Source of the DNA: an uncultured archaeon
GTDB lineage: Archaea > Asgardarchaeota > Jordiarchaeia > Jordiarchaeales > Jordiarchaeaceae
Assembly (NCBI GenBank): GCA_964510585.1
Contig: CAZECW010000139.1
Span: forward strand, 1-32,000
Direction of reading: 5' to 3'
DNA length: 32,000 bases
Part shown: positions 15,244 through 24,316 of the stretch, piece after piece
Numbering within the stretch: the stretch's first letter is position 1
Layout: the number at the start of each line of letters is the position of its first letter
Position numbers and translations under genes: made by a program
The notes under the pieces: model-generated
The model's input: only the letters and a program-made list of their open reading frames with translations
Database searches by the model: none
Told to the model about the DNA's origin: nothing

Positions 15244-16029
15244 TTATAGTTCCCTTAGGGTTCCTTTTAGGTCTATTCGGGTTCTTATTACTTGGAGTTC
15301 TTCTTTTGTGGGTGGCTCTGTTTCTGGAACGTCATCTGGAATTATGAGTTGGAATCCAGTGTTGTTTTTAACCTCTTCGATCGATACTCCTGGGTGTACT
15401 GATTTTAGGCGCATTCTTTTGGTCTTTTCTTCGAAGTCCATTATACAGAGAGGTGTTAATACATATTTGGGGCCTCCTCCAGGTAGGCCTAGTTTTTTTC
15501 TGGAGTTTCCCCCGTCTCCCCAGCCTACGGCGGTTATGTATTCGCATTTGTCCACGAAAATCATTGGGTGGTGCCTCTCAGAGTAGATATAGTAGCGGCC
15601 CACGTAGGTTGTTATTGTTGATTGTCCAATGGCGCCTGGTCCTCGGAACATCAATTTTGGGTACTGTCCGCCAATGCCGAGCAGGTTTATGTTTCCATAT
15701 TTGTCTATTTGGAGGCCTCCGAAGAAGCTGACATCATACCTTCTTATAGTATCCCAGAGGTGCTCATATTCTGGTACTTCTTCGCAGTATTTGAATCCAG
15801 AGTAGTCTGTGACGAATTCAAAACTTTCTATTTGTTTCACGTCTGAGAAGTTGGCGCGGTAAAACTGTAGCCAGCGCATGTTTGGTGCGTGTGTTAGGTG
15901 TGCGAGGAGTACGCCTGCTCTACACGCGGGTAGGTTGGCTCCTATTAGTACTGTTTCGCCGTCTTTGATTTCTCGGGAGATGAAAGCAGCTAGGAGCTCT
16001 CTTATTGAGTAATCTTTGTTTCTGCTCAA
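15244..16029 (-). CDS. Class I CoA-transferase-fold beta subunit (GctB/IpdB-like) lacking the canonical catalytic Glu
   Basis: Motifs GGLQIDKYGNIN, GPGAIG, RKKLGLPGGGPKYVLT and NTGFQL. THAPNMRWLQF56YR replaces the usual APxxxxxxESG. Confidence 0.8.
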   Translation of the reverse strand: MSRNKDYSIRELLAAFISREIKDGETVLIGANLPACRAGVLLAHLTHAPNMRWLQFYRANFSDVKQIESFEFVTDYSGFKYCEEVPEYEHLWDTIRRYDVSFFGGLQIDKYGNINLLGIGGQYPKLMFRGPGAIGQSTITTYVGRYYIYSERHHPMIFVDKCEYITAVGWGDGGNSRKKLGLPGGGPKYVLTPLCIMDFEEKTKRMRLKSVHPGVSIEEVKNNTGFQLIIPDDVPETEPPTKEELQVIRTRIDLKGTLREL

Positions 16030-16042
16030 TTTTTTTCACCTT

Positions 16043-16933
16043 CTACCATCTGTATAGAGAGAGGAGTTTCTTCATACCGATTACTTCAAGATACTCTTCG
16101 TGTGAATTTGGTTCAAGGATGTATTTTTTGAGGTACTGGTTGAAGGGCTCAGGGTTTCCCTTTGTGTAAGCCTTGGCCGCCTCCACGTACTCTTTGAGGT
16201 GTTCCCTGTCTAAATCGTAGAATCCATCGCTTGAGAAGGGGTGGGAACCATATGGGGTGGGCACCACCGCATCAACCCCGTAAATCTTTGTTAGGTGTGG
16301 GTTTCTCTTTATGTCTTCGTTAGAAACCACTTTTTCTACTTGAAAGACGCATTTTTTGGAGGCTCTCGCCATTAGAATGTCTGCGTAGGTGTTTCCCACG
16401 TACTGTATGTTGCCATATGGGTCGCTCCAGGATGCGTGAAGTATGGCTACGTCGAGTTCCAGTGCGGGGACAGCTAGCAATGTTTGTCCCTTTATGGGGT
16501 CTTGGAAGTATTTTAGATCGGGGTTAATGTCGGGCAGGCAGGTGCCAACGCCGCCTAGCCAGGGTAGGAAAGGTAGCCCCTCGGCCGCGGCTCTTAGTGC
16601 GGTGCATAGGATTGCTTCGTCGCACTCCCACATTTGAATGGTGCCGTCCACTACTGCTTTTCGGAAGAATGGACCTATGGGTGCGAGTGATTCTCCTCCC
16701 ACGTAAGCAGTGGCCACCTTCTTTGCGACACCCGCTCCGATCATCAAGTCAATTTCTAGTCCCGCTGCGGGTGAGCCTACTACTGTCAGGTTTTTTACAC
16801 CGTTCTTAATGATTTGGCGAATTATGGCCATGGGGTGATTTGCAGTTAGAAGGCCCCCGATGCCTACGGTCATACCGTCCTTTATCATTGAGGCTGCCTC
16901 TCTTACACTCATAATGACTTCTTTTCTGGTCAT
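16043..16933 (-). CDS. Class I CoA-transferase-fold alpha subunit (GctA/IpdA-like)
   Basis: Motifs IKDGMTVGIGG, HPMAIIRQ, ECDEAILCTALRAAAEGLPFLP, DVAILHASWSDPYGN and PYGSHP. Confidence 0.85.
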   Translation of the reverse strand: MTRKEVIMSVREAASMIKDGMTVGIGGLLTANHPMAIIRQIIKNGVKNLTVVGSPAAGLEIDLMIGAGVAKKVATAYVGGESLAPIGPFFRKAVVDGTIQMWECDEAILCTALRAAAEGLPFLPWLGGVGTCLPDINPDLKYFQDPIKGQTLLAVPALELDVAILHASWSDPYGNIQYVGNTYADILMARASKKCVFQVEKVVSNEDIKRNPHLTKIYGVDAVVPTPYGSHPFSSDGFYDLDREHLKEYVEAAKAYTKGNPEPFNQYLKKYILEPNSHEEYLEVIGMKKLLSLYRW

Positions 16934-16980
16934 GATAACACCAGCTTCAGATGCTGTTAAAACCCGATATGTGGAATTAG

Positions 16981-16988
16981 CTTATAAA
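16981..16988 (-). promoter_or_regulatory. TATA box of the CoA-transferase-fold operon
   Basis: TTTATAAG on the minus strand, 48 nt upstream of the start at 16933. Confidence 0.5.
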
Positions 16989-17223
16989 TAAAAGCCCAAA
17001 AAATAAAGGATAAAACTAATTTTAGTTAACTCTGATCATTTGGGACGAAATTTACCGACCGACTTCCACAAATGTCCACCGATATGGCGGAAAAGTGAAC
17101 CTGTCTGGGTAGCGACCTGAATTATTTTGGTTAATTGTATGGTGTTCGGCTAATCGCTAGTGCTATTTGTGGAAAGGTTTGCATAGGATTCAGAAGTTAC
17201 TCATATGGTAAAGTTTTGGCGCA

Positions 17224-18357
17224 TTATGTTTTTTGTTGTAGGGCGAGGACCGCCGCTTCTATTATTGTTTTTGTGAATTCTTCAAGTGTGAATCCTGTGT
17301 AGTCTATTTTGTTACTTTTGAAGGCTTCAACTATGGCGTTGCTTATGGCCTTCTCGTTTTCCGCTGATATTCCTTTGAGGGCGTTAACCACTTTTTCCAG
17401 ACCGTCTGCTGGGGAGAGTAGAAAGTCGCCAGTTATGAGAATGTCTCTAATCTTTTTGGTCTTGTCTATGGCTACGCTGGCGTTGATAGTTCTTTCTGAC
17501 TTGTATCTGAAGGTTGCAGCCCTCCAATCGTTGGGCAGTTTACTGTACCATCTACTCTTGGAAACGCTGGTAACTACATCTTCTGCGGTGAGTTTTTTGA
17601 AGCCCTCAGTAATCATTTCTTTTTCTTCCTCGGTGAAGTTTCCGGGTGCAAATTCCATTCCCAGTTTCTGTTTCACAATGGTTAGCAAGAGATTCTTTAC
17701 TTCTTCTTCAGTAGGTGTTCTGGGTGCATCCTTTTCCATGCTACCCGCATACATGGTTACGTCGCGCAACAATTTGTCCTTCAGCTTCTCCTCTGGATAA
17801 ACATAATAATCTGTGAAGAACTTAACGCTGGGGGTAAGCCGGTTGATGAAGGTTCCCACCACAACCCCTTTTCCCCAAATTAGGGAAGTGCTTCCACCCA
17901 ACTTTTTGTCATCTTTTCGAATGTCGCCCGGATGACTATAGTAGGCGTCTAAAACACCCACCCTCATGAAGAGTTCTAGAACCACTTCGCCGGCCCAAAT
18001 CCTCTCAGCCTCCTCCAAATTTGGAAACACGTCCGTGGTTGTCACCAGTACCGCCGCGATTTGGCCCTTTGGGGCATAGTAGGTGCCAGCTCCACTCTCC
18101 CTCCGCCCCACCAGCACACCGTCCCTTTTCACAGCCTTGTACCTAATCTCATCCAAGTCCTCATACTTACCCAGGCTCAGTGATTCTTTACCATGAGAAA
18201 CAAATATAAGCGTGTCTGGAATCTTACCCGCATCACGCATCTTGGACAAAACATCAAAAGCCACAAGCAACTCTACACCAGACATATCAGAAACAATTAG
18301 TCTCCCCTTAGACTGAGTTCTAAACTTCTTCTCCCTTCTTTCCAACTGTTCCAACAC
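17224..18357 (-). CDS. Lipoate-protein ligase A family protein (catalytic plus C-terminal domain), intact paralog
   Basis: Motifs RRESGAGTYY (RRxSGGG-like) and DDKKLGGS (catalytic Lys region), with a C-terminal ILITGDF domain. GTG start at 18357 follows GGAGGTG. Confidence 0.75.
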   Translation of the reverse strand: MLEQLERREKKFRTQSKGRLIVSDMSGVELLVAFDVLSKMRDAGKIPDTLIFVSHGKESLSLGKYEDLDEIRYKAVKRDGVLVGRRESGAGTYYAPKGQIAAVLVTTTDVFPNLEEAERIWAGEVVLELFMRVGVLDAYYSHPGDIRKDDKKLGGSTSLIWGKGVVVGTFINRLTPSVKFFTDYYVYPEEKLKDKLLRDVTMYAGSMEKDAPRTPTEEEVKNLLLTIVKQKLGMEFAPGNFTEEEKEMITEGFKKLTAEDVVTSVSKSRWYSKLPNDWRAATFRYKSERTINASVAIDKTKKIRDILITGDFLLSPADGLEKVVNALKGISAENEKAISNAIVEAFKSNKIDYTGFTLEEFTKTIIEAAVLALQQKT

Positions 18358-18919
18358 AAAAAACACCTCCAACTCAAAGAATAAATCTATGTATTATAAT
18401 CTCCAACCATCTTGGGGCTGTTAATCGTTGAAATTAGAGAAAACCTGTTTTTCTCCACTAAGGAATACATTTTCAGTGATAATCAACATATTTATAATTT
18501 TTGGAGCAAAGAGGGACAAAATGCAGCTTCTCCACATTTGTACCGAGCAAAACTAATCCGTTGCGTATAACCGGCCAAAATGTGGGTAGTAGGAGGAAGC
18601 GAAACTTACTGACAGGCCTCATATAAATAGTTTTTTTGTCGATAGTTTTATAAAGAAAACAAATCCAGAGAAACGAAATCCAGAGCATCGTAAATATGAA
18701 GTGAAGCGTTACCCCTTTAAATGTGAGGCGTTAGTGGCTACAGTGATTCCTCCACCAAAAAATCACACGCGAAAAATGGTGACCAAAATTCGTTAAGACG
18801 CTGCGAACAGTCTTTTGATTAAACCTTAGAGTGGAGGAAAACAAAGGCGGAAGACCCAAATAAGCATTCAAACAAAGAATGGATATTTCGTACTATTCTG
18901 GATTTAAACCAACTTGGGT

Positions 18920-18957
18920 GAAACCCTATTTTGAAAAATCAAAACGGGTAGGGTTTC
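18920..18957. promoter_or_regulatory. Imperfect palindrome upstream of the thiolase-fold operon
   Basis: GAAACCCTA-TTTTGA-AAAA-TCAAAA-CGGG-TAGGGTTTC ends 42 nt before the ATG at 19000. Confidence 0.4.
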
Positions 18958-18999
18958 CAGAGGCTGAATAAATTGAATTCCTTTGTAGAGGTTTAAATT

Positions 19000-20142
19000 A
19001 TGGATAAAGAAGTAGCCATTGTGGGAGTAGCACAAACCAAGTATGAGGAAGAAAAGGCGGATTTACCCTACTCTGAACTAGTTTTCGAAGTCGTCAAAAA
19101 ACTCCACGACGAGCTGGGAATAACTAAAGACGACGTGGGAAGCATAATAACTAGCTCCAACGATTTCAACGACGGAAGAACAATAGCCAGCATGGCCATT
19201 CAGGATGCTTTAGGAGCCGTGGGAAAATCGGAGTCCCGAGTATCGGGAGACGGAGCATTCGCCTATGTCTACGGAGTAATGAGAATACTAGAAGGAACAT
19301 ACGATACAGTGATGGTGGTTTCACACTGCAAGTGTTCCGAGTCAAACATTTACCTTGTAAACAATTCTATTTTTGAGCCCTACTACCAGAGATGGCTGGG
19401 ACTAGACCAGGTCTCTTCGGCGGGATTAATGGCGAACATGTACTCACACAAGTATGGAATCACCCAAGAACAAGCGGCAAAAGTGGCAGTAAAAAACCGC
19501 AAAAACGCTCTAAACAATCCCTACGCACATCTACAAAAAGCAGTTACAGTCGACGAAGTCCTAAATTCCAAAATGATGGCCTACCCCCTCAAAGAACTAG
19601 ATCTACCGCCACTCTCGGACGGAGCTGTAGCAATGCTCCTAACAAACAAAGAGAAAGCCAAAAAATATACAGACACACCAGTGTGGTTTAAGGGCCACGG
19701 CAATTGCACCGACGCCTACTACCTTGGACACCGCAACATGACCGACCTCATAGGACTAGAACTAGCAGCAAGAGAAGCCTACAAAATGGCGGGAATAAAA
19801 AACCCCATGAAGGAAATCGACGTAGCAGAAATCTATGAAGCGTTCACCTACCACGAACTAATGAATTATGAAGCCCTAGGACTATGCAAAAAAGGCGAGG
19901 GAGGAAAACTCATCGACAGCGGACAAACAGAAATGAACGGAACCCTCCCAGTAAACCCCTCAGGAGGCGTACTCTCAAGCAACCCCTCCATGGCCAACGG
20001 ACTAGTTCGTGTAGCAGAAATCGCACTGCAACTAATGGGCAAAGCCGAAAAAAGACAGGTGAAAGACGCCAAAATTGGACTAGCCACAGGAATGAATGGA
20101 ATCTGCTCCCAAGGAAACTGCGTAATCATATTAGAAGCATGA
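19000..20142 (+). CDS. Thiolase-fold protein lacking catalytic Cys/His, Ltp4-like (putative aldolase subunit)
   Basis: LHDELGITKDDVG...NDGR...ESRVSGDGAFA has no Cys where ExACASG is expected. AEIYEAF has Tyr for His, and NPSGGVLSSNP has Asn for His. Confidence 0.75.
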   Translation: MDKEVAIVGVAQTKYEEEKADLPYSELVFEVVKKLHDELGITKDDVGSIITSSNDFNDGRTIASMAIQDALGAVGKSESRVSGDGAFAYVYGVMRILEGTYDTVMVVSHCKCSESNIYLVNNSIFEPYYQRWLGLDQVSSAGLMANMYSHKYGITQEQAAKVAVKNRKNALNNPYAHLQKAVTVDEVLNSKMMAYPLKELDLPPLSDGAVAMLLTNKEKAKKYTDTPVWFKGHGNCTDAYYLGHRNMTDLIGLELAAREAYKMAGIKNPMKEIDVAEIYEAFTYHELMNYEALGLCKKGEGGKLIDSGQTEMNGTLPVNPSGGVLSSNPSMANGLVRVAEIALQLMGKAEKRQVKDAKIGLATGMNGICSQGNCVIILEA

Positions 20143-20161
20143 AAATGAGGAGATGAAAAAT

Positions 20162-21322
20162 ATGGTAAAACAAAAAGTAGCAATTGTGGCAACCGGCCAA
20201 ACAAAACACAGAAGCCGAAGAAGAGACGTCAACATATCCGAAATGATTTATGAAGCAGTAAAAATGGCCCTAGATGAAGCCCAACTCACACCCAAAGACA
20301 TAGACGCCGTCGTTATTGGAAACATGGACCACTTCGAAGGAATAAACTTCTCCGAAATGTGGACCGGAATAGAATCCGCACCTGGATACCTCAAACCCGT
20401 AGTAAAAGTAGCCACAGGGGGAACCACCGGAACCTCCCTAGCAGCATACGGATACTACGCAGTAGCCTCTGGAATGTATGACAAAGTACTAGTAGTGGGA
20501 TGGGAAAAAATAAACGAAGGAGGAGCCACAACCGGAATAGTAACAGCCTTCGACGCCAGATGGGAAAGACCCGCCCTAGCCGGGGCACTAGGCCCCCTCG
20601 CTCTGATGGCTAGTATGTATATGTGGGAATTTGGAGTAACACCAGAACAAGCCGCAAAAGTAACAGTCAAAAACAGAAGAAACGCAGCAAATAATCCCTT
20701 CGCACACCTGCAACAACCCAACATGACAGTAGAAGAAGTGATGAACTCACCAGTAATATCGTGGCCCCTAAGACTCCATGATTGTTGCCCGCAGAGTGAG
20801 GGTGCTTGTGCGATTGTTTATGCGGGTGAGGGTGTGGCTAGGAAGATTAGTGATAATTTGGCGTGGGTTAAGGGTGTGGACACGGGGCACTATTATACTT
20901 ATGGTGGCGATGATGTGATGCATAAGTATCCTGCGGCCAAGATTGCTTCTACCAGGCTTTACAAGAAGGTGGGTATTAGGAATCCGTTGAAGGATTTGGA
21001 TGTGGCTGAGGTTTATGAGCCGAGTAGTTGGGCGGAGCTTATGTGGACTGAGGCTTTGGGTTTCTGTGAGTATGGTCAGGGTGGTAAGTTGTTGGATGAG
21101 GGTGTTACTGAGATGGGTGGTGAGTTGCCAGTGAATCCTTCGGGCGGTGTTATTGCGACGAATCCTATTGGTGCTACGGCGCTTATTCGTGTGGCTGAGG
21201 CTGCGATTCAGGTTAGGGGCCTGGGTGGTAAGCGTCAGGTTCCTGATGTGGAGTTGGCGTTGGCTCATGGTTTCGGTGGTAGTGTTTGGGCGGATCTTAT
21301 GATTTTGGGTAAGGAGCCTTGA
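20162..21322 (+). CDS. Thiolase-fold protein lacking catalytic Cys/His, Ltp3-like (putative aldolase subunit)
   Basis: Motifs GQTKHRSRRRDV, DHFEG, ATGGTTG (no Cys), WEK, NPFAHLQQP, CPQSEGACA, AEVYEPSSWAELMW and NPSGGVIATNPIGA, closely matching actinobacterial Ltp3 as I recall it. Confidence 0.8.
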   Translation: MVKQKVAIVATGQTKHRSRRRDVNISEMIYEAVKMALDEAQLTPKDIDAVVIGNMDHFEGINFSEMWTGIESAPGYLKPVVKVATGGTTGTSLAAYGYYAVASGMYDKVLVVGWEKINEGGATTGIVTAFDARWERPALAGALGPLALMASMYMWEFGVTPEQAAKVTVKNRRNAANNPFAHLQQPNMTVEEVMNSPVISWPLRLHDCCPQSEGACAIVYAGEGVARKISDNLAWVKGVDTGHYYTYGGDDVMHKYPAAKIASTRLYKKVGIRNPLKDLDVAEVYEPSSWAELMWTEALGFCEYGQGGKLLDEGVTEMGGELPVNPSGGVIATNPIGATALIRVAEAAIQVRGLGGKRQVPDVELALAHGFGGSVWADLMILGKEP

Positions 21323-21336
21323 TTTGAGGTGATTTT

Positions 21337-21822
21337 ATGAGTGAGAAGAAGGAAGAGCCTTTTACTATAAATTGGCTTACTGATTTGCCTTATCGTTATG
21401 CTTTGGGACCCGTTGCATCGAAGTTCTTTAGGGTGCTTAAGGAGTCTGGTAAGTTACTGGCGATTAAGTGTAGGAAGTGTGGGAAGGTGTTGTTCCCTCC
21501 GAGGTCTGTGTGTGCGGACTGTTTGGTGGAGATGACTGTGGATGATATGGTTGAATTGAGTGGTGAGGGTTCGCTGGATGGTTTTACTGTGGTTAATTAT
21601 CCTTTTGTGGATCCTAATACTGGTGAGACGAGGCCTTTTCCGTATGGTTATGGTGCGATTAAGTTGAAGGGTACAGATACTTGGATGCTGCATTTTGTCG
21701 ATGAGACGGATCCTGGGAAGATTAAGCCGGGTATGCTGGTGAAGGCGGTGATTAAGCCTAAGAATGAGCGGAAAGGTACTTTAGAGGATATACCCTACTT
21801 TAGAGCGGTTGAGAAGAAGTGA
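21337..21822 (+). CDS. DUF35 zinc-ribbon/OB-fold protein 1
   Basis: KCRKCGKVLFPPRSVCADC followed by an OB-fold segment (GYGAIKLKGTDTWMLH). Confidence 0.9.
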   Translation: MSEKKEEPFTINWLTDLPYRYALGPVASKFFRVLKESGKLLAIKCRKCGKVLFPPRSVCADCLVEMTVDDMVELSGEGSLDGFTVVNYPFVDPNTGETRPFPYGYGAIKLKGTDTWMLHFVDETDPGKIKPGMLVKAVIKPKNERKGTLEDIPYFRAVEKK

Positions 21823-21847
21823 GATTTCAATCTGTGGAGGTTTTGTT

Positions 21848-22288
21848 GTGAGTGAGGATAAGTATTTTCATGGTAGGATTAGGGTGCCTTATAGGCATGT
21901 TGCTGGTGCTTATGCTGGTCGGTTTATTCAGGAGATTGGCAATAATAAGAGGATTATGGGTGTGAAGTGTTCCAGATGTGGTAAAGTGTATGTTCCTCCT
22001 AGGATGGTTTGTTTTGCGTGTTTTGAGAAAATGAAGGAATGGGTCGAAGTTGGCAAGCAAGGTACGGTTAAGGGATTTACGGTGGTTAACTATTCGACGC
22101 CAGTTATGCCGTTGAAGCCCCCCTTTGCTTATGGGATTATTGAGTTAGATGGTTCAAATACTGGTTTTGTGCACATCATTAAGGAGGGTGACCCCAAGAA
22201 GCTGAAGGTTGGCATGCGGGTTGAGGCTGTTTTCAAGAGCAACCCAGAGGGCAACATTTTGGACATTGAATACTTCAAACCAGTATAG
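21848..22288 (+). CDS. DUF35 zinc-ribbon/OB-fold protein 2
   Basis: KCSRCGKVYVPPRMVCFAC, PPFAYGIIELDG and GMRVEAVF. GTG at 21848 follows GGAGG. Confidence 0.9.
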   Translation: MSEDKYFHGRIRVPYRHVAGAYAGRFIQEIGNNKRIMGVKCSRCGKVYVPPRMVCFACFEKMKEWVEVGKQGTVKGFTVVNYSTPVMPLKPPFAYGIIELDGSNTGFVHIIKEGDPKKLKVGMRVEAVFKSNPEGNILDIEYFKPV

Positions 22289-22448
22289 TATGCTTCCCCT
22301 TTTTCATTTTTTATTTAGATTTTTTGTTTTAGGGATTGTTTCCCAATTATGTTTGTTTGACGCTCTCTGCGACCAAAAATAGGGGGATTTTTTCGCCAGC
22401 AATTAGGTGTAATTTGATTCTCTTCTGAGTAGGGTAGTTTTTTCATTT

Positions 22449-23135
22449 TTAGGCGATTGTTTTCCACACGAATCTTTGACTCCCAAGAATTAGCAATAGT
22501 ACTGCTAACAGTATTGGGCTAATTGGGAACAAGGGTGTGATGAATTGTAGAGTTCCTGTTAGCATAAGTAGGAGTATTACTATTACTGCAAGGAGCGAGA
22601 ATTGGGCTGCTGTTAGTGTGTAGACAGCTAGTTTTTCTTTGGGGGTTCCGTTTCTTAATATTTCGCGCATTCTCTTTTTGGCTTCTCCATAGGTTTTGTA
22701 GCGGTTTGAGGACGGTAGTCTCCAAGTTCTGAGCGTGAATAGTAGGTCTCGAAATTCAGCCTCTTTTAAGAGTCTCAAAAGGACCCAGTTGTGTAAATCA
22801 ATTATTATTAAGGAGAGTGCAAGGGTGAAGATTAGAAGTAGTAGCGTCATTTCGGTTATTGTGTTAATTTTGAATAGTGTGATTCGGTTGGAGAGGTACG
22901 CGATTCTCACGGTGAAGGTGGTGGCTTCAAGATCCCATGGTCCGAAGAGGTTCTGGTAGTATGAGGGTGCGCTGGAAAAGAGGAGAAGCAATTCCAGGGG
23001 TATACTAAAAACAGTGGAGAGCGAGAGCCAAGTGTAGGTGAGAAAGAGGATTGCTCAAGGAATCCATGATAGAAATCCTATCATTACCATTCGTTTGAAC
23101 GCATTATTTACCTCTAATTCCTCTTCTAGAAACAT
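22449..23135 (-). pseudogene. Multi-pass membrane protein with an in-frame TGA at codon 27 (23055-23057)
   Basis: ATG at 23135 gives MFLEEELEVNNAFKRMVMIGFLSWIP*AILFLTYTWLSLSTVFSIPLELLLLFSSAPSY..., continuous in frame with the tracked 180-aa hydrophobic ORF. Confidence 0.55.
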
Positions 23136-23302
23136 TTGATTAGCTCTCCTAGACGCACGCTATTTTTATTCTTCTTTGAGTATAAAAAGTTATTTTGGGT
23201 TTGAATGAGACTGGTTTTAGAAAATTTTATAACAATGTTTTAACCTAGATTTAGGTTAATGTGTTTCCATAAGACTACTAAAAAGGGTAGGAGTAGAGTG
23301 TT

Positions 23303-24316
23303 TTGGTTTCTAAAGGAGAAGAGATGCTAAGAGAAGATATTGAGAGGGTTCAGGAGCAGAGACTGCAGAGAGAAGTGAAGTACGCTTATAATTATTCTGA
23401 GTTTTACAGGAAAAAATTCGCTGATGCTGGGTTGAAACCTGATGACGTAAAGAGTTTGGATGATTTGTCGAGGATTCCTGTTACCTCCAAGGAGGAGGTT
23501 CTATCCAAGTTTAGTGACAGTGATCCTTTTAGTGGTCGGCTTTGTGTTCCCGTAGATAAGTTGTGGTATATAATTTTACCTCATGAAGCCACGTTGTCTG
23601 GCAGACCACTCTACACTGCATATACTTATAATGATCGCCGGGTTCTTCTGGAACAGTTGACGCGGTTCTTCCGAATGCTTGGTGTTGGAGCTAAGGATTT
23701 AGTTATGACTTCTGGTCAATCTTGGGAGCTTACCCCAAGAGTTCTGGAGAGCGCATTCACTATTCAAGAAACGGTTCAGGATAGGTTAGGGTTCATCAAC
23801 ATGCCTTTGGAGGCTTCCCTAGTTTTTATTGATATGCCTAGAGCCATTTATCTCGGGGAGCAACTTAAACCGAGAATTTTTTTCACCCTAGTATCATACT
23901 TTGATCAGGTCACTCAGGGGATAAAGAGTCAAAAAAAGGTGCCTAAGGATGTTTTTCAGCCGGAAATAATTGTTCTAAGAGAGTTGATGGATGATATGCG
24001 GCTTACAGATGAAAAGCAAAAGGAGTACAAAAGTGAGTGGGGTAGTGAGTTTTATAGAATGTTGGACGTACAGGATACTGCTTTTCTTGCCATGGAGTGC
24101 CCTGAGCACAATGGACTACACGCATGGGAGGACATGTTCATCATAGAGGCATTGAGTAATGGAGAACCAGTGGCTGAGGGTAAGAGAGGAAAGTTGACAA
24201 TAACTAATCTCTGGTCAGAGGCTACACCAGCGATAAGGTGGCAAACAGATTACGAAGTGACTTTGGACAAAAAGCGCTGCAAGTGTGGAGGAAACCATCT
24301 GAGAATTAAGCTATGA
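23303..24316 (+). CDS. Degenerate PaaK-like (phenylacetate-CoA ligase/F390 synthetase family) protein: N-domain only, P-loop eroded
   Basis: Motifs YSEFYRKKF, DLSRIPVTSK, ECPEHNGLHAWED and GKLTITNL...PAIRW. ILPHEATLSGRP stands where STTGTTG is expected, and the protein ends at RCKCGGNHLRIKL before the C-domain. An alternative ATG lies at 23324. Confidence 0.75.
   Translation: MVSKGEEMLREDIERVQEQRLQREVKYAYNYSEFYRKKFADAGLKPDDVKSLDDLSRIPVTSKEEVLSKFSDSDPFSGRLCVPVDKLWYIILPHEATLSGRPLYTAYTYNDRRVLLEQLTRFFRMLGVGAKDLVMTSGQSWELTPRVLESAFTIQETVQDRLGFINMPLEASLVFIDMPRAIYLGEQLKPRIFFTLVSYFDQVTQGIKSQKKVPKDVFQPEIIVLRELMDDMRLTDEKQKEYKSEWGSEFYRMLDVQDTAFLAMECPEHNGLHAWEDMFIIEALSNGEPVAEGKRGKLTITNLWSEATPAIRWQTDYEVTLDKKRCKCGGNHLRIKL

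Follow-up and report, generated by a model that had tools for sequence, protein, structure and literature searches.

Intense, correlated GC and TA skews are known from bacterial elements called GRINS, where they are tied to gene conversion (Nivina et al. 2021, PNAS, PMC8256042). GRINS are defined as repeats (>80% identity, >500 bp); they occur in bacterial, mainly Streptomyces, polyketide synthase (PKS) genes, and conversion between the copies is linked to them. They are the closest known phenomenon to the feature described here, and the compositional phenotype is alike. The feature lies in a 32,000-nucleotide stretch of DNA, hereafter the window, from contig CAZECW010000139.1 (C139) of a metagenome-assembled genome (MAG, G000; 3.78 Mb in 217 contigs) whose nearest public relatives are MAGs labelled Candidatus Jordarchaeia or Freyarchaeota, Asgard archaea chiefly from hot springs. 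Part-way along a thiolase-like gene of this window, codons ending in A or C give way abruptly to codons ending in G or T. The flip is a real, strong and conserved feature, the centre of a DNA-level 'skew dipole' that is one of dozens in the genome sharing a polarity and independent of gene orientation and function.

Strand asymmetries of other kinds are well known. Replication leaves GC and keto skew in bacteria and skew N-domains, with sharp upward jumps and gradual returns, at mammalian origins. Vertebrate mitochondrial DNA carries single-strand deamination gradients on one strand genome-wide, running from one origin. Transcription-associated mutational asymmetry involves the same substitution classes on the non-template strand, C>T together with A>G on one strand being the signature of damage to the non-transcribed strand. 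Finally, in the kataegis-type, strand-coordinated mutation clusters of yeast and cancers the affected strand switches at a double-strand break.

The features of the locus on which the comparison with these systems depends are as follows.

20153 to 21322, + strand: thiolase-like gene 2 (SCP-x/Ltp3-type), assigned from Pfam, the change point and orthologues; the flip is at codon 208.
19458 to 20776, + strand composition: A/C-rich (amino, 'M') arm from a hidden Markov model (HMM); third positions about 82% A/C, TA skew -0.41, GC skew -0.06.
20762 to 20791, no strand: dipole centre, with the maximum-likelihood step placed at 20777, between the codons for ...WPLRL and those for HDCCPQSEGA..., with a resolution of about 16 codons or finer.
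20777 to 22231, + strand composition: G/T-rich (keto, 'K') arm; third positions 88-93% G/T, GC skew +0.45, TA skew +0.21.

GRINS and the dipole have in common coupled skews of G over C and T over A, an abrupt change of sign within a gene, a maximum at third codon positions, and a rise in Gly, Val, Trp and Cys with a fall in Pro, Thr, His and Gln. In both, the encoded proteins remain functional. Against the skew threshold given for GRINS (mean absolute GC skew and mean absolute TA skew each above 0.15 over more than 500 bp) the G/T arm passes. The A/C arm does so in its TA skew but has a GC skew of just -0.06, because the purine excess of the coding strand offsets it. The third-position pattern, with Gly, Val, Cys and Trp set against Pro, Thr, His and Gln, is also present. 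The duplication that defines GRINS is missing, since the best other match to positions 18900-22400 in a blastn search of the whole genome is 65.6% over 1075 nt. The locus is single-copy (best other match 66-70%), archaeal, and one of a genome-wide set with fixed polarity, point centres and decaying arms, features that GRINS are not known to have. It is a new, non-repeat and dipolar variant of intense nucleotide skew, and no description of the pattern was found in the literature on Jordarchaeia or on keto skew in archaea.

A preliminary description of this DNA, relying on codons counted by hand, had placed the flip near 20776, and the counts prove exact: 33 of the 40 codons at 20642-20761 end in A or C, and 33 of the 35 at 20777-20881 in G or T. 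Change-point analysis of the third positions in the open reading frame (ORF) at 20153-21322 locates a step at codon 208 (nucleotide 20777), where the G/T fraction of third positions (K3) rises from 0.20 to 0.93. The likelihood ratio is 119.4, set against a maximum of 10.0 among 2000 permutations. Ramps of up to about 16 codons fit as well as a step, and ramps of 32-64 codons fit worse. The outer limits proposed for the two regimes, about 19500 and 22200, agree with HMM segments at 19458-20776 (A/C) and 20779-22231 (G/T). The protein was said to remain a coherent homologue throughout, and it does so: Pfam thiolase domains lie on both sides (Thiolase_N at residues 9-185, Thiolase_C_1 at 259-381) and identity to orthologues in other Asgard lineages is 72-75% across residues 1-389. 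The further contention that gene orientation and amino-acid content are unable to account for the flip also stands.

The abruptness of the switch is the one property that speaks for a chimeric assembly, or for a junction of two horizontally acquired segments differing in composition. Four other Jordarchaeia/Freyarchaeia MAGs (L001-L004), from separate studies and sites and with 98-88% protein identity, flip at the identical codon, with no insert at the site, so that five MAGs from different sites agree. Contigs from four independent sequencing runs bridge position 20776, namely X3 (identical over 1077 nt), X4 (11 kb), X5 (17.8 kb) and X9 (2.4 kb). Same-codon flips and bridging contigs together refute the chimeric assembly that the preliminary description had allowed for. 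Its suggestion of a recombination junction is not supported, as pairwise identities between strains show no step at 20776, and random junctions cannot yield the strict single polarity seen genome-wide. We give an artefact or mosaic practically no credence. The orthologues in other Asgard lineages, at 72-75% identity, lack any skew regime.

A survey of the whole genome, using a codon model built on composition-robust gene calls, places the thiolase flip in a large set. In raw 400-nt windows there are 17 upward (A/C to G/T) jumps in keto skew exceeding 0.6 and one downward. The HMM codon model, with both arms of at least 40 codons, finds 57 A/C-to-G/T junctions and none in reverse, compared with 13 and one after a within-gene shuffle of third positions. 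Looser raw-skew criteria give 83 upward and 17 downward, and another setting 55 and 10 (34 and 36 after block shuffling). Depending on the criterion the 3.78-Mb genome holds 55-119 upward jumps. Averaged over 28 junctions, the profile is an antisymmetric step with arms that fade out across some 2-3 kb, the upward jumps being sharp and the returns gradual. Individual maps display one shape whether the flanking genes both point right, both point left, converge or diverge, and the arms cross genes of either orientation. The dipole is invariant under reverse complementation: on either strand, A/C-rich DNA precedes the centre (5') and G/T-rich DNA follows it (3'). About 14% of codons fall within skew regimes and 86% are unskewed.

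Symmetric decaying arms, a single polarity and a position kept within the genus bear out the earlier proposal of a fixed point from which strand asymmetry runs in opposite directions. Symmetric, coupled arms with one polarity and kilobase decay point to a two-sided, point-anchored process whose sides differ in the strand affected. That geometry fits three processes: a two-ended break, a bubble and divergent transcription.

One candidate is local initiation of a replication type, in which helicase loading and bidirectional unwinding or synthesis from the centres would make the leading strand G/T-rich only nearby, through many weak origins, abortive initiations or recombination-dependent starts. 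We consider it unlikely. The likeness to replication skew is considerable, in that each strand is G/T-rich 3' of the point, the polarity seen at bacterial origins, the arms are symmetric, and upward jumps are sharp with gradual returns. The scale, however, is 2-3 kb rather than a replichore or megabases, the amplitude, at about 90% of silent sites, is much greater, and dozens to more than 100 centres per 3.8 Mb lie in genes and lack origin features. An archaeal oriC, of which a chromosome has one to a few, would show replichore-long skew and an intergenic AT-rich element with origin-recognition boxes. Here the arms are gone within 2-3 kb, there are 55-119 jumps in 3.8 Mb with 86% of codons unskewed, and the centre sits in an intact ORF with no GC dip or repeats. 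Of the fixed points offered in the preliminary description, the replication start or stop, taken as a classical origin or terminus, is therefore not supported. The cumulative GC skew of a complete congeneric genome is, moreover, reportedly consistent with ordinary bidirectional replication (10.1101/2023.11.21.568159).

The composition of the arms shows that the pressure acts on DNA and not through codon selection. Genome-wide, third positions in arms are 83% A/C or 83% G/T compared with 48% G/T elsewhere. First and second codon positions are skewed in the direction of the arm too, the effect being greatest at third positions, and the keto fraction of intergenic DNA inside arms is 0.40 (A/C) or 0.57 (G/T) as opposed to 0.50. 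All 21 codon families shift alike, and since every family is shifted to an equal degree no sequence context is involved. GC content is unchanged, so both transition types contribute about equally. The bias is a surplus of transitions that is spread evenly: A>G with C>T on one strand, G>A with T>C on the other. It reaches the proteins as well, G/T arms being enriched in V, R, M, W, F and G, A/C arms in Q, T, K, I, N and P, with K/M-arm usage ratios of 1.71 for V, 1.48 for W, 1.25 for G, 1.18 for C, 0.85 for H, 0.81 for P, 0.61 for T and 0.57 for Q.

The mitochondrial gradients mentioned above are of comparable amplitude, combine C>T and A>G on one strand and yield A/C- or G/T-ending codons in all families. 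In the dipoles, by contrast, the affected strand switches at many fixed points. The kataegis-type clusters also have strand-specific changes that reverse at a point and reach a few kb to either side of it. They are single events produced by cytosine deaminases or damage with the polarity of resection, whereas the dipoles are evolutionary, saturating, include A>G and have a polarity opposite to that of simple deamination of 3' tails.

Selection on RNA or translation would have the 5' part of a gene use A/C-ending (Watson-Crick decoded) and the 3' part G/U-ending (wobble decoded) codons, the choice tuning translation speed, co-translational folding or mRNA structure. The strength of the effect at third positions is in keeping with this, as is the fact that several centres fall at domain or motif boundaries and recur in paralogues, examples being the Walker-B sites and CDC48 pair described below. 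We nevertheless regard this reading as highly improbable. The arms run past gene borders into opposite-strand genes and into intergenic DNA, first and second positions and amino-acid usage are shifted as well, and in convergent pairs the 3' ends of both genes are A/C-ending. Nor is there a relation to function: the genes in extreme arms are unrelated housekeeping genes, with FGGY kinase, PurF, NuoD, NuoH and MTHFR among those in A/C arms and class-I tRNA synthetases, UvrC, a nucleoside hydrolase and a radical-SAM enzyme among those in G/T arms.

The placement of the centres bears on transcription. Called ORFs contain 43 of the 57 sharp centres, and 21 of these 43 fall in the final fifth of their gene (KS p = 8e-6). 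The 50 raw-skew dipoles that are flanked by genes comprise 32 co-directional, 17 convergent and one divergent arrangement, where 64%, 19% and 17% are expected. Read in the coding sense, A/C arms outnumber G/T arms by a factor of 2.35, and A/C bias grows toward gene 3' ends, G/T bias toward 5' ends. These observations suit a model of divergent, untranslated transcription with R-loops, in which antisense or read-through RNAs would begin at the centre, or cease to be translated there, and extend outward. The non-template strand, left single-stranded, would become G/T-rich by deamination of C and A, a process possibly self-reinforcing in that G-rich RNA forms stabler hybrids. The substitution signature is that of non-transcribed-strand damage, the preference for gene 3' ends and convergent pairs is accommodated, the abundance of coding-sense A/C arms would imply antisense RNA, and arms of 1-3 kb resemble transcripts in length. 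On the other hand, about half of the sharp centres are deep inside genes, often at conserved motifs, and they show no excess of TATA-like A/T-rich words (6.7 as against 5.9 per 90 nt). True divergent promoters, where transcription-associated asymmetry should peak, carry just one of the 50 dipoles, which means that ordinary sense transcription is not the cause. The thiolase flip itself is inside a co-directional operon and, with arms traversing genes of both orientations, the sign of the bias is independent of the strand transcribed. We judge R-loops a possible, if doubtful, origin of the dipoles.

What marks a centre in the sequence? The earlier suggestion of a search for motifs at all flip points returned no shared k-mer among the 43 sharp centres. 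GGCC is neither enriched nor rare at centres in this genome, and the sharp centres have no GC dip. Ectopic homology or paralogous repeats were considered as a general anchor and set aside, as most of the other 83 dipole centres, the strongest included, have no second copy in the genome. A link to the tRNA-type introns found in protein genes of this lineage was likewise dropped, since the extant introns of ppsA (C56, about 9220) and hypD (C97, about 2600) are not at dipoles. An intron, intein or homing endonuclease may have occupied the site in the past. A repeat of about 140 bp, with more than 60 copies 94-100% identical genome-wide, occurs at many contig ends (for example C214:1-140) and inside contigs; it is probably a miniature transposable element fragmenting the assembly of this genome, and has no general association with dipole centres.

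Certain protein motifs do coincide with centres. At ABC-type Walker-B sites (...LDEPT.GLD...) 6 of 12 carry an A/C-to-G/T step of at least 0.45, the background for steps above 0.5 being 0.0006. The six belong to five transporters of one subfamily and to the second ABC domain of UvrA, in the following genes.

C196:41125-42129: Walker-B step gene.
C173:24009-25001: Walker-B step gene.
C196:43353-44969: Walker-B step gene.
C214:120-860: Walker-B step gene.
C212:33412-34419: Walker-B step gene.
C38:25313-28153: Walker-B step gene.

In a CDC48 pair (D2) and in a pair of IDTGYG paralogues the flip site is common to both members. The simplest reading of these paralogue coincidences is that flips are inherited through gene duplication, in which case whatever fixes the centre travels with the gene segment.

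Comparison among congeners shows a heritable, fixed centre. The uvrA flip is at one codon in G003, in G002 and in the complete genome G005 (3,576,204 bp, 77% DNA identity), and the arms differ among these congeners in purity and reach. Within the genus the centre keeps its place to the codon, with a strength that varies by lineage. At four-fold sites in the thiolase arms, the window and its most distant congener, L004, are 0.56-0.59 identical, compared with 0.44-0.45 at saturation; the sites have largely turned over within their class and are still about 90% A/C or G/T in both. Had the arms been passive relics, transitions would have scrambled them, and the regimes must therefore have been maintained in both lineages. 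On the branch leading to this genome, third positions of uvrA changed from G/T to A/C at 0.40 per site and in reverse at 0.05 (about 8:1), with 33 changes scattered over 2.6 kb without tract structure (runs z = +1.5), and in sister lineages the bias is weaker or absent. The pressure is real and ongoing; it differs between loci and between lineages, but the centre does not move. Treating polarised substitutions as 'decay' was abandoned, as possible ascertainment bias weakens that measure, and singleton and longer-branch analyses were used instead.

Another genome of the genus is equally patchy. In 100-kb samples the standard deviation (s.d.) of 400-nt skew is 0.134 for this genome and 0.129 for G005, a wetland congener. 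Temperature was thereby rejected as a cause, the complete wetland-soil genome being as patchy as the hot-spring genome described here, though with narrower uvrA arms. Skew varies less in order-level and other Asgard genomes (s.d. 0.058-0.105), which have occasional clear dipoles, and A/C-to-G/T dipoles at lower density outside the genus were seen at L112 (G021:C1:100001-120000) and L122 (G016:C61:20001-40000).

The mechanism that we favour, tentatively, as the most likely is a recurrent strand-asymmetric transition bias centred on breakage or repair. The centres would be sites of recurrent breakage or nicking, possibly where topological stress builds up at the 3' ends of genes or between convergent ones, and from them repair by resection, strand invasion and resynthesis would spread outward on both sides over 1-3 kb. 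The bias could then arise in two ways. Damage or misincorporation may affect the strand that is transiently single-stranded or newly synthesised. Alternatively, mismatch processing of heteroduplex may separate keto-keto (G/T) from amino-amino (A/C) mispairs, giving strand-asymmetric biased gene conversion. The two DNA ends of a break have opposite strand polarity, so the sign of the bias would flip exactly at the break point. We rank this mechanism first because it needs no promoter inside genes, because arm lengths match resection and conversion tracts, because a placement that favours gene ends and convergent pairs and shuns divergent promoters is like that of positively supercoiled sites, and because GRINS, the sole described counterpart, are associated with gene conversion.

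A variant involves NucS/EndoMS, a nuclease that cuts G/T, G/G and T/T mismatches specifically and not A/C (PMC6159521). As a mismatch filter acting on heteroduplex formed from two 3' tails, it would favour opposite alleles on each side of a break. NucS is present in all six genomes of the genus. Its presence is no clear guide to patches in the genomes sampled, where skew s.d. is 0.059-0.129 with NucS and 0.058-0.083 where none was found. Missing repair of deamination was rejected: the genus, like other Asgard genomes, has both Endonuclease V and UDG.

Several results weigh against a break- or repair-centred origin. No sequence determinant was found that would keep a break site in place, with a precision of about 16 codons, across some 23% DNA divergence. 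Within 20 nt either side of the 43 sharp centres, 4- to 6-mers show no enrichment above multiple-testing noise, hairpins or palindromes at centres are too weak (mean z -0.35 against arm-preserving shuffles), and 20700-20850 has no repeats or inverted repeats, with none of the latter at 20777. A strain recombination breakpoint at 20776 had to be dismissed for want of a step in pairwise identity. Three NucS-positive genomes (G013, G020 and G029) are nearly patch-free, and G016, where no NucS was found, has two moderate dipoles. The predicted polarity depends on the model: deamination of the 3' tails left by 5'-3' resection gives the opposite sign, and conversion through NucS can give either, depending on unproven assumptions. 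Among four close genomes, singletons in the thiolase A/C arm are unbiased (0.16 and 0.17 per site in the two directions) and those in the G/T arm are biased by just 1.7:1, so the process seems to be currently inactive at this locus.

A weak hint for the break model comes from the co-occurring X4/X5 strain, about 1.2% divergent, which over 18900-22400 has some 27 differences from the window in 19365-20761 and some 4 in 20777-21975. We caution that the suggested inequality of divergence on the two sides of the centre comes from a single comparison with a strain known from contigs only.

Taken further, the centres could be heritable, sequence-independent hot spots of programmed or topology-driven breakage and recombination, with a NucS pathway turning each into a footprint of strand-asymmetric biased gene conversion. 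They would then be comparable to eukaryotic recombination hot spots, with cleavage of the Topo VI/Spo11 type at gene ends and in convergent zones. This more specific proposal is a long shot.

The surroundings of the thiolase flip are a co-directional cluster of two thiolase-like genes followed by two genes of DUF35/ChsH2 type with zinc-ribbon and OB folds. The neighbouring features are listed below.

19000 to 20142, + strand: thiolase-like gene 1 (Pfam Thiolase_N and Thiolase_C_1), its 3' two-thirds inside the A/C-rich arm by the string of third positions.
21337 to 21822, + strand: DUF35/ChsH2-type zinc-ribbon and OB-fold gene (Pfam), wholly within the K arm (K3 0.88).
21809 to 22288, + strand: second DUF35/ChsH2-type gene (Pfam), in the K arm, with the bias fading over the final 30 or so codons.
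22497 to 23569, + strand composition: weaker tail of the K arm (HMM and raw skew), third positions 0.76 G/T.

The G/T arm at 20777-22231 traverses three gene boundaries, and the weak tail passes the opposite-strand ORF at 22449-22991 to reach the next + strand gene. The two DUF35/ChsH2-type genes overlap by 14 nt (21809-21822) if the second starts at a putative TTG at 21809. The adjacent thiolase paralogues share an 85-nt segment of 78% identity, at 19455-19539 and 20632-20716, in which both copies encode ...EQAAKV.VKNR.NA.NNP.AHLQ... in A/C-ending codons. In the first paralogue, onset of the A/C regime coincides exactly with this segment. Opposite the thiolase G/T arm an ORF of 166 amino acids with an ATG start occupies 20768-21268 on the - strand. 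The strand complementary to a G/T arm is T-poor and nearly stop-free, and dipole arms consequently yield long spurious antisense ORFs that mislead gene callers.

Elsewhere in the window a second sharp A/C-to-G/T switch is found near 877-975 (feature 816-1407), where two genes converge. Over - strand genes at 15244-17515 the DNA is G/T-rich for a long stretch, and it gradually becomes A/C-rich at 18094-18370, a return of the gradual type. A search of the window against Rfam gave no match.

The process responsible alters as many as about 90% of silent sites across kilobases of sequence and has a measurable effect on protein composition. It affects about 14% of codons in an Asgard genome, including those of genes used in eukaryogenesis phylogenies such as CDC48, V-ATPase B and UvrA, and such compositional heterogeneity breaks the stationarity assumption of phylogenetic and codon-usage analyses. 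On a practical level, the T-poor strand of each arm holds long spurious antisense ORFs. Strict polarity and point centres make the phenomenon experimentally tractable, as the centres predict where breaks, R-loops or initiation events would lie. A cause linked to repair or recombination would make the dipoles the first mechanistic handle on GRINS. Should the hot-spot proposal hold, the same mechanism would explain GRINS in actinobacteria that carry NucS, and genome sequence alone would map the sites of recombination initiation in the closest prokaryotic relatives of eukaryotes.

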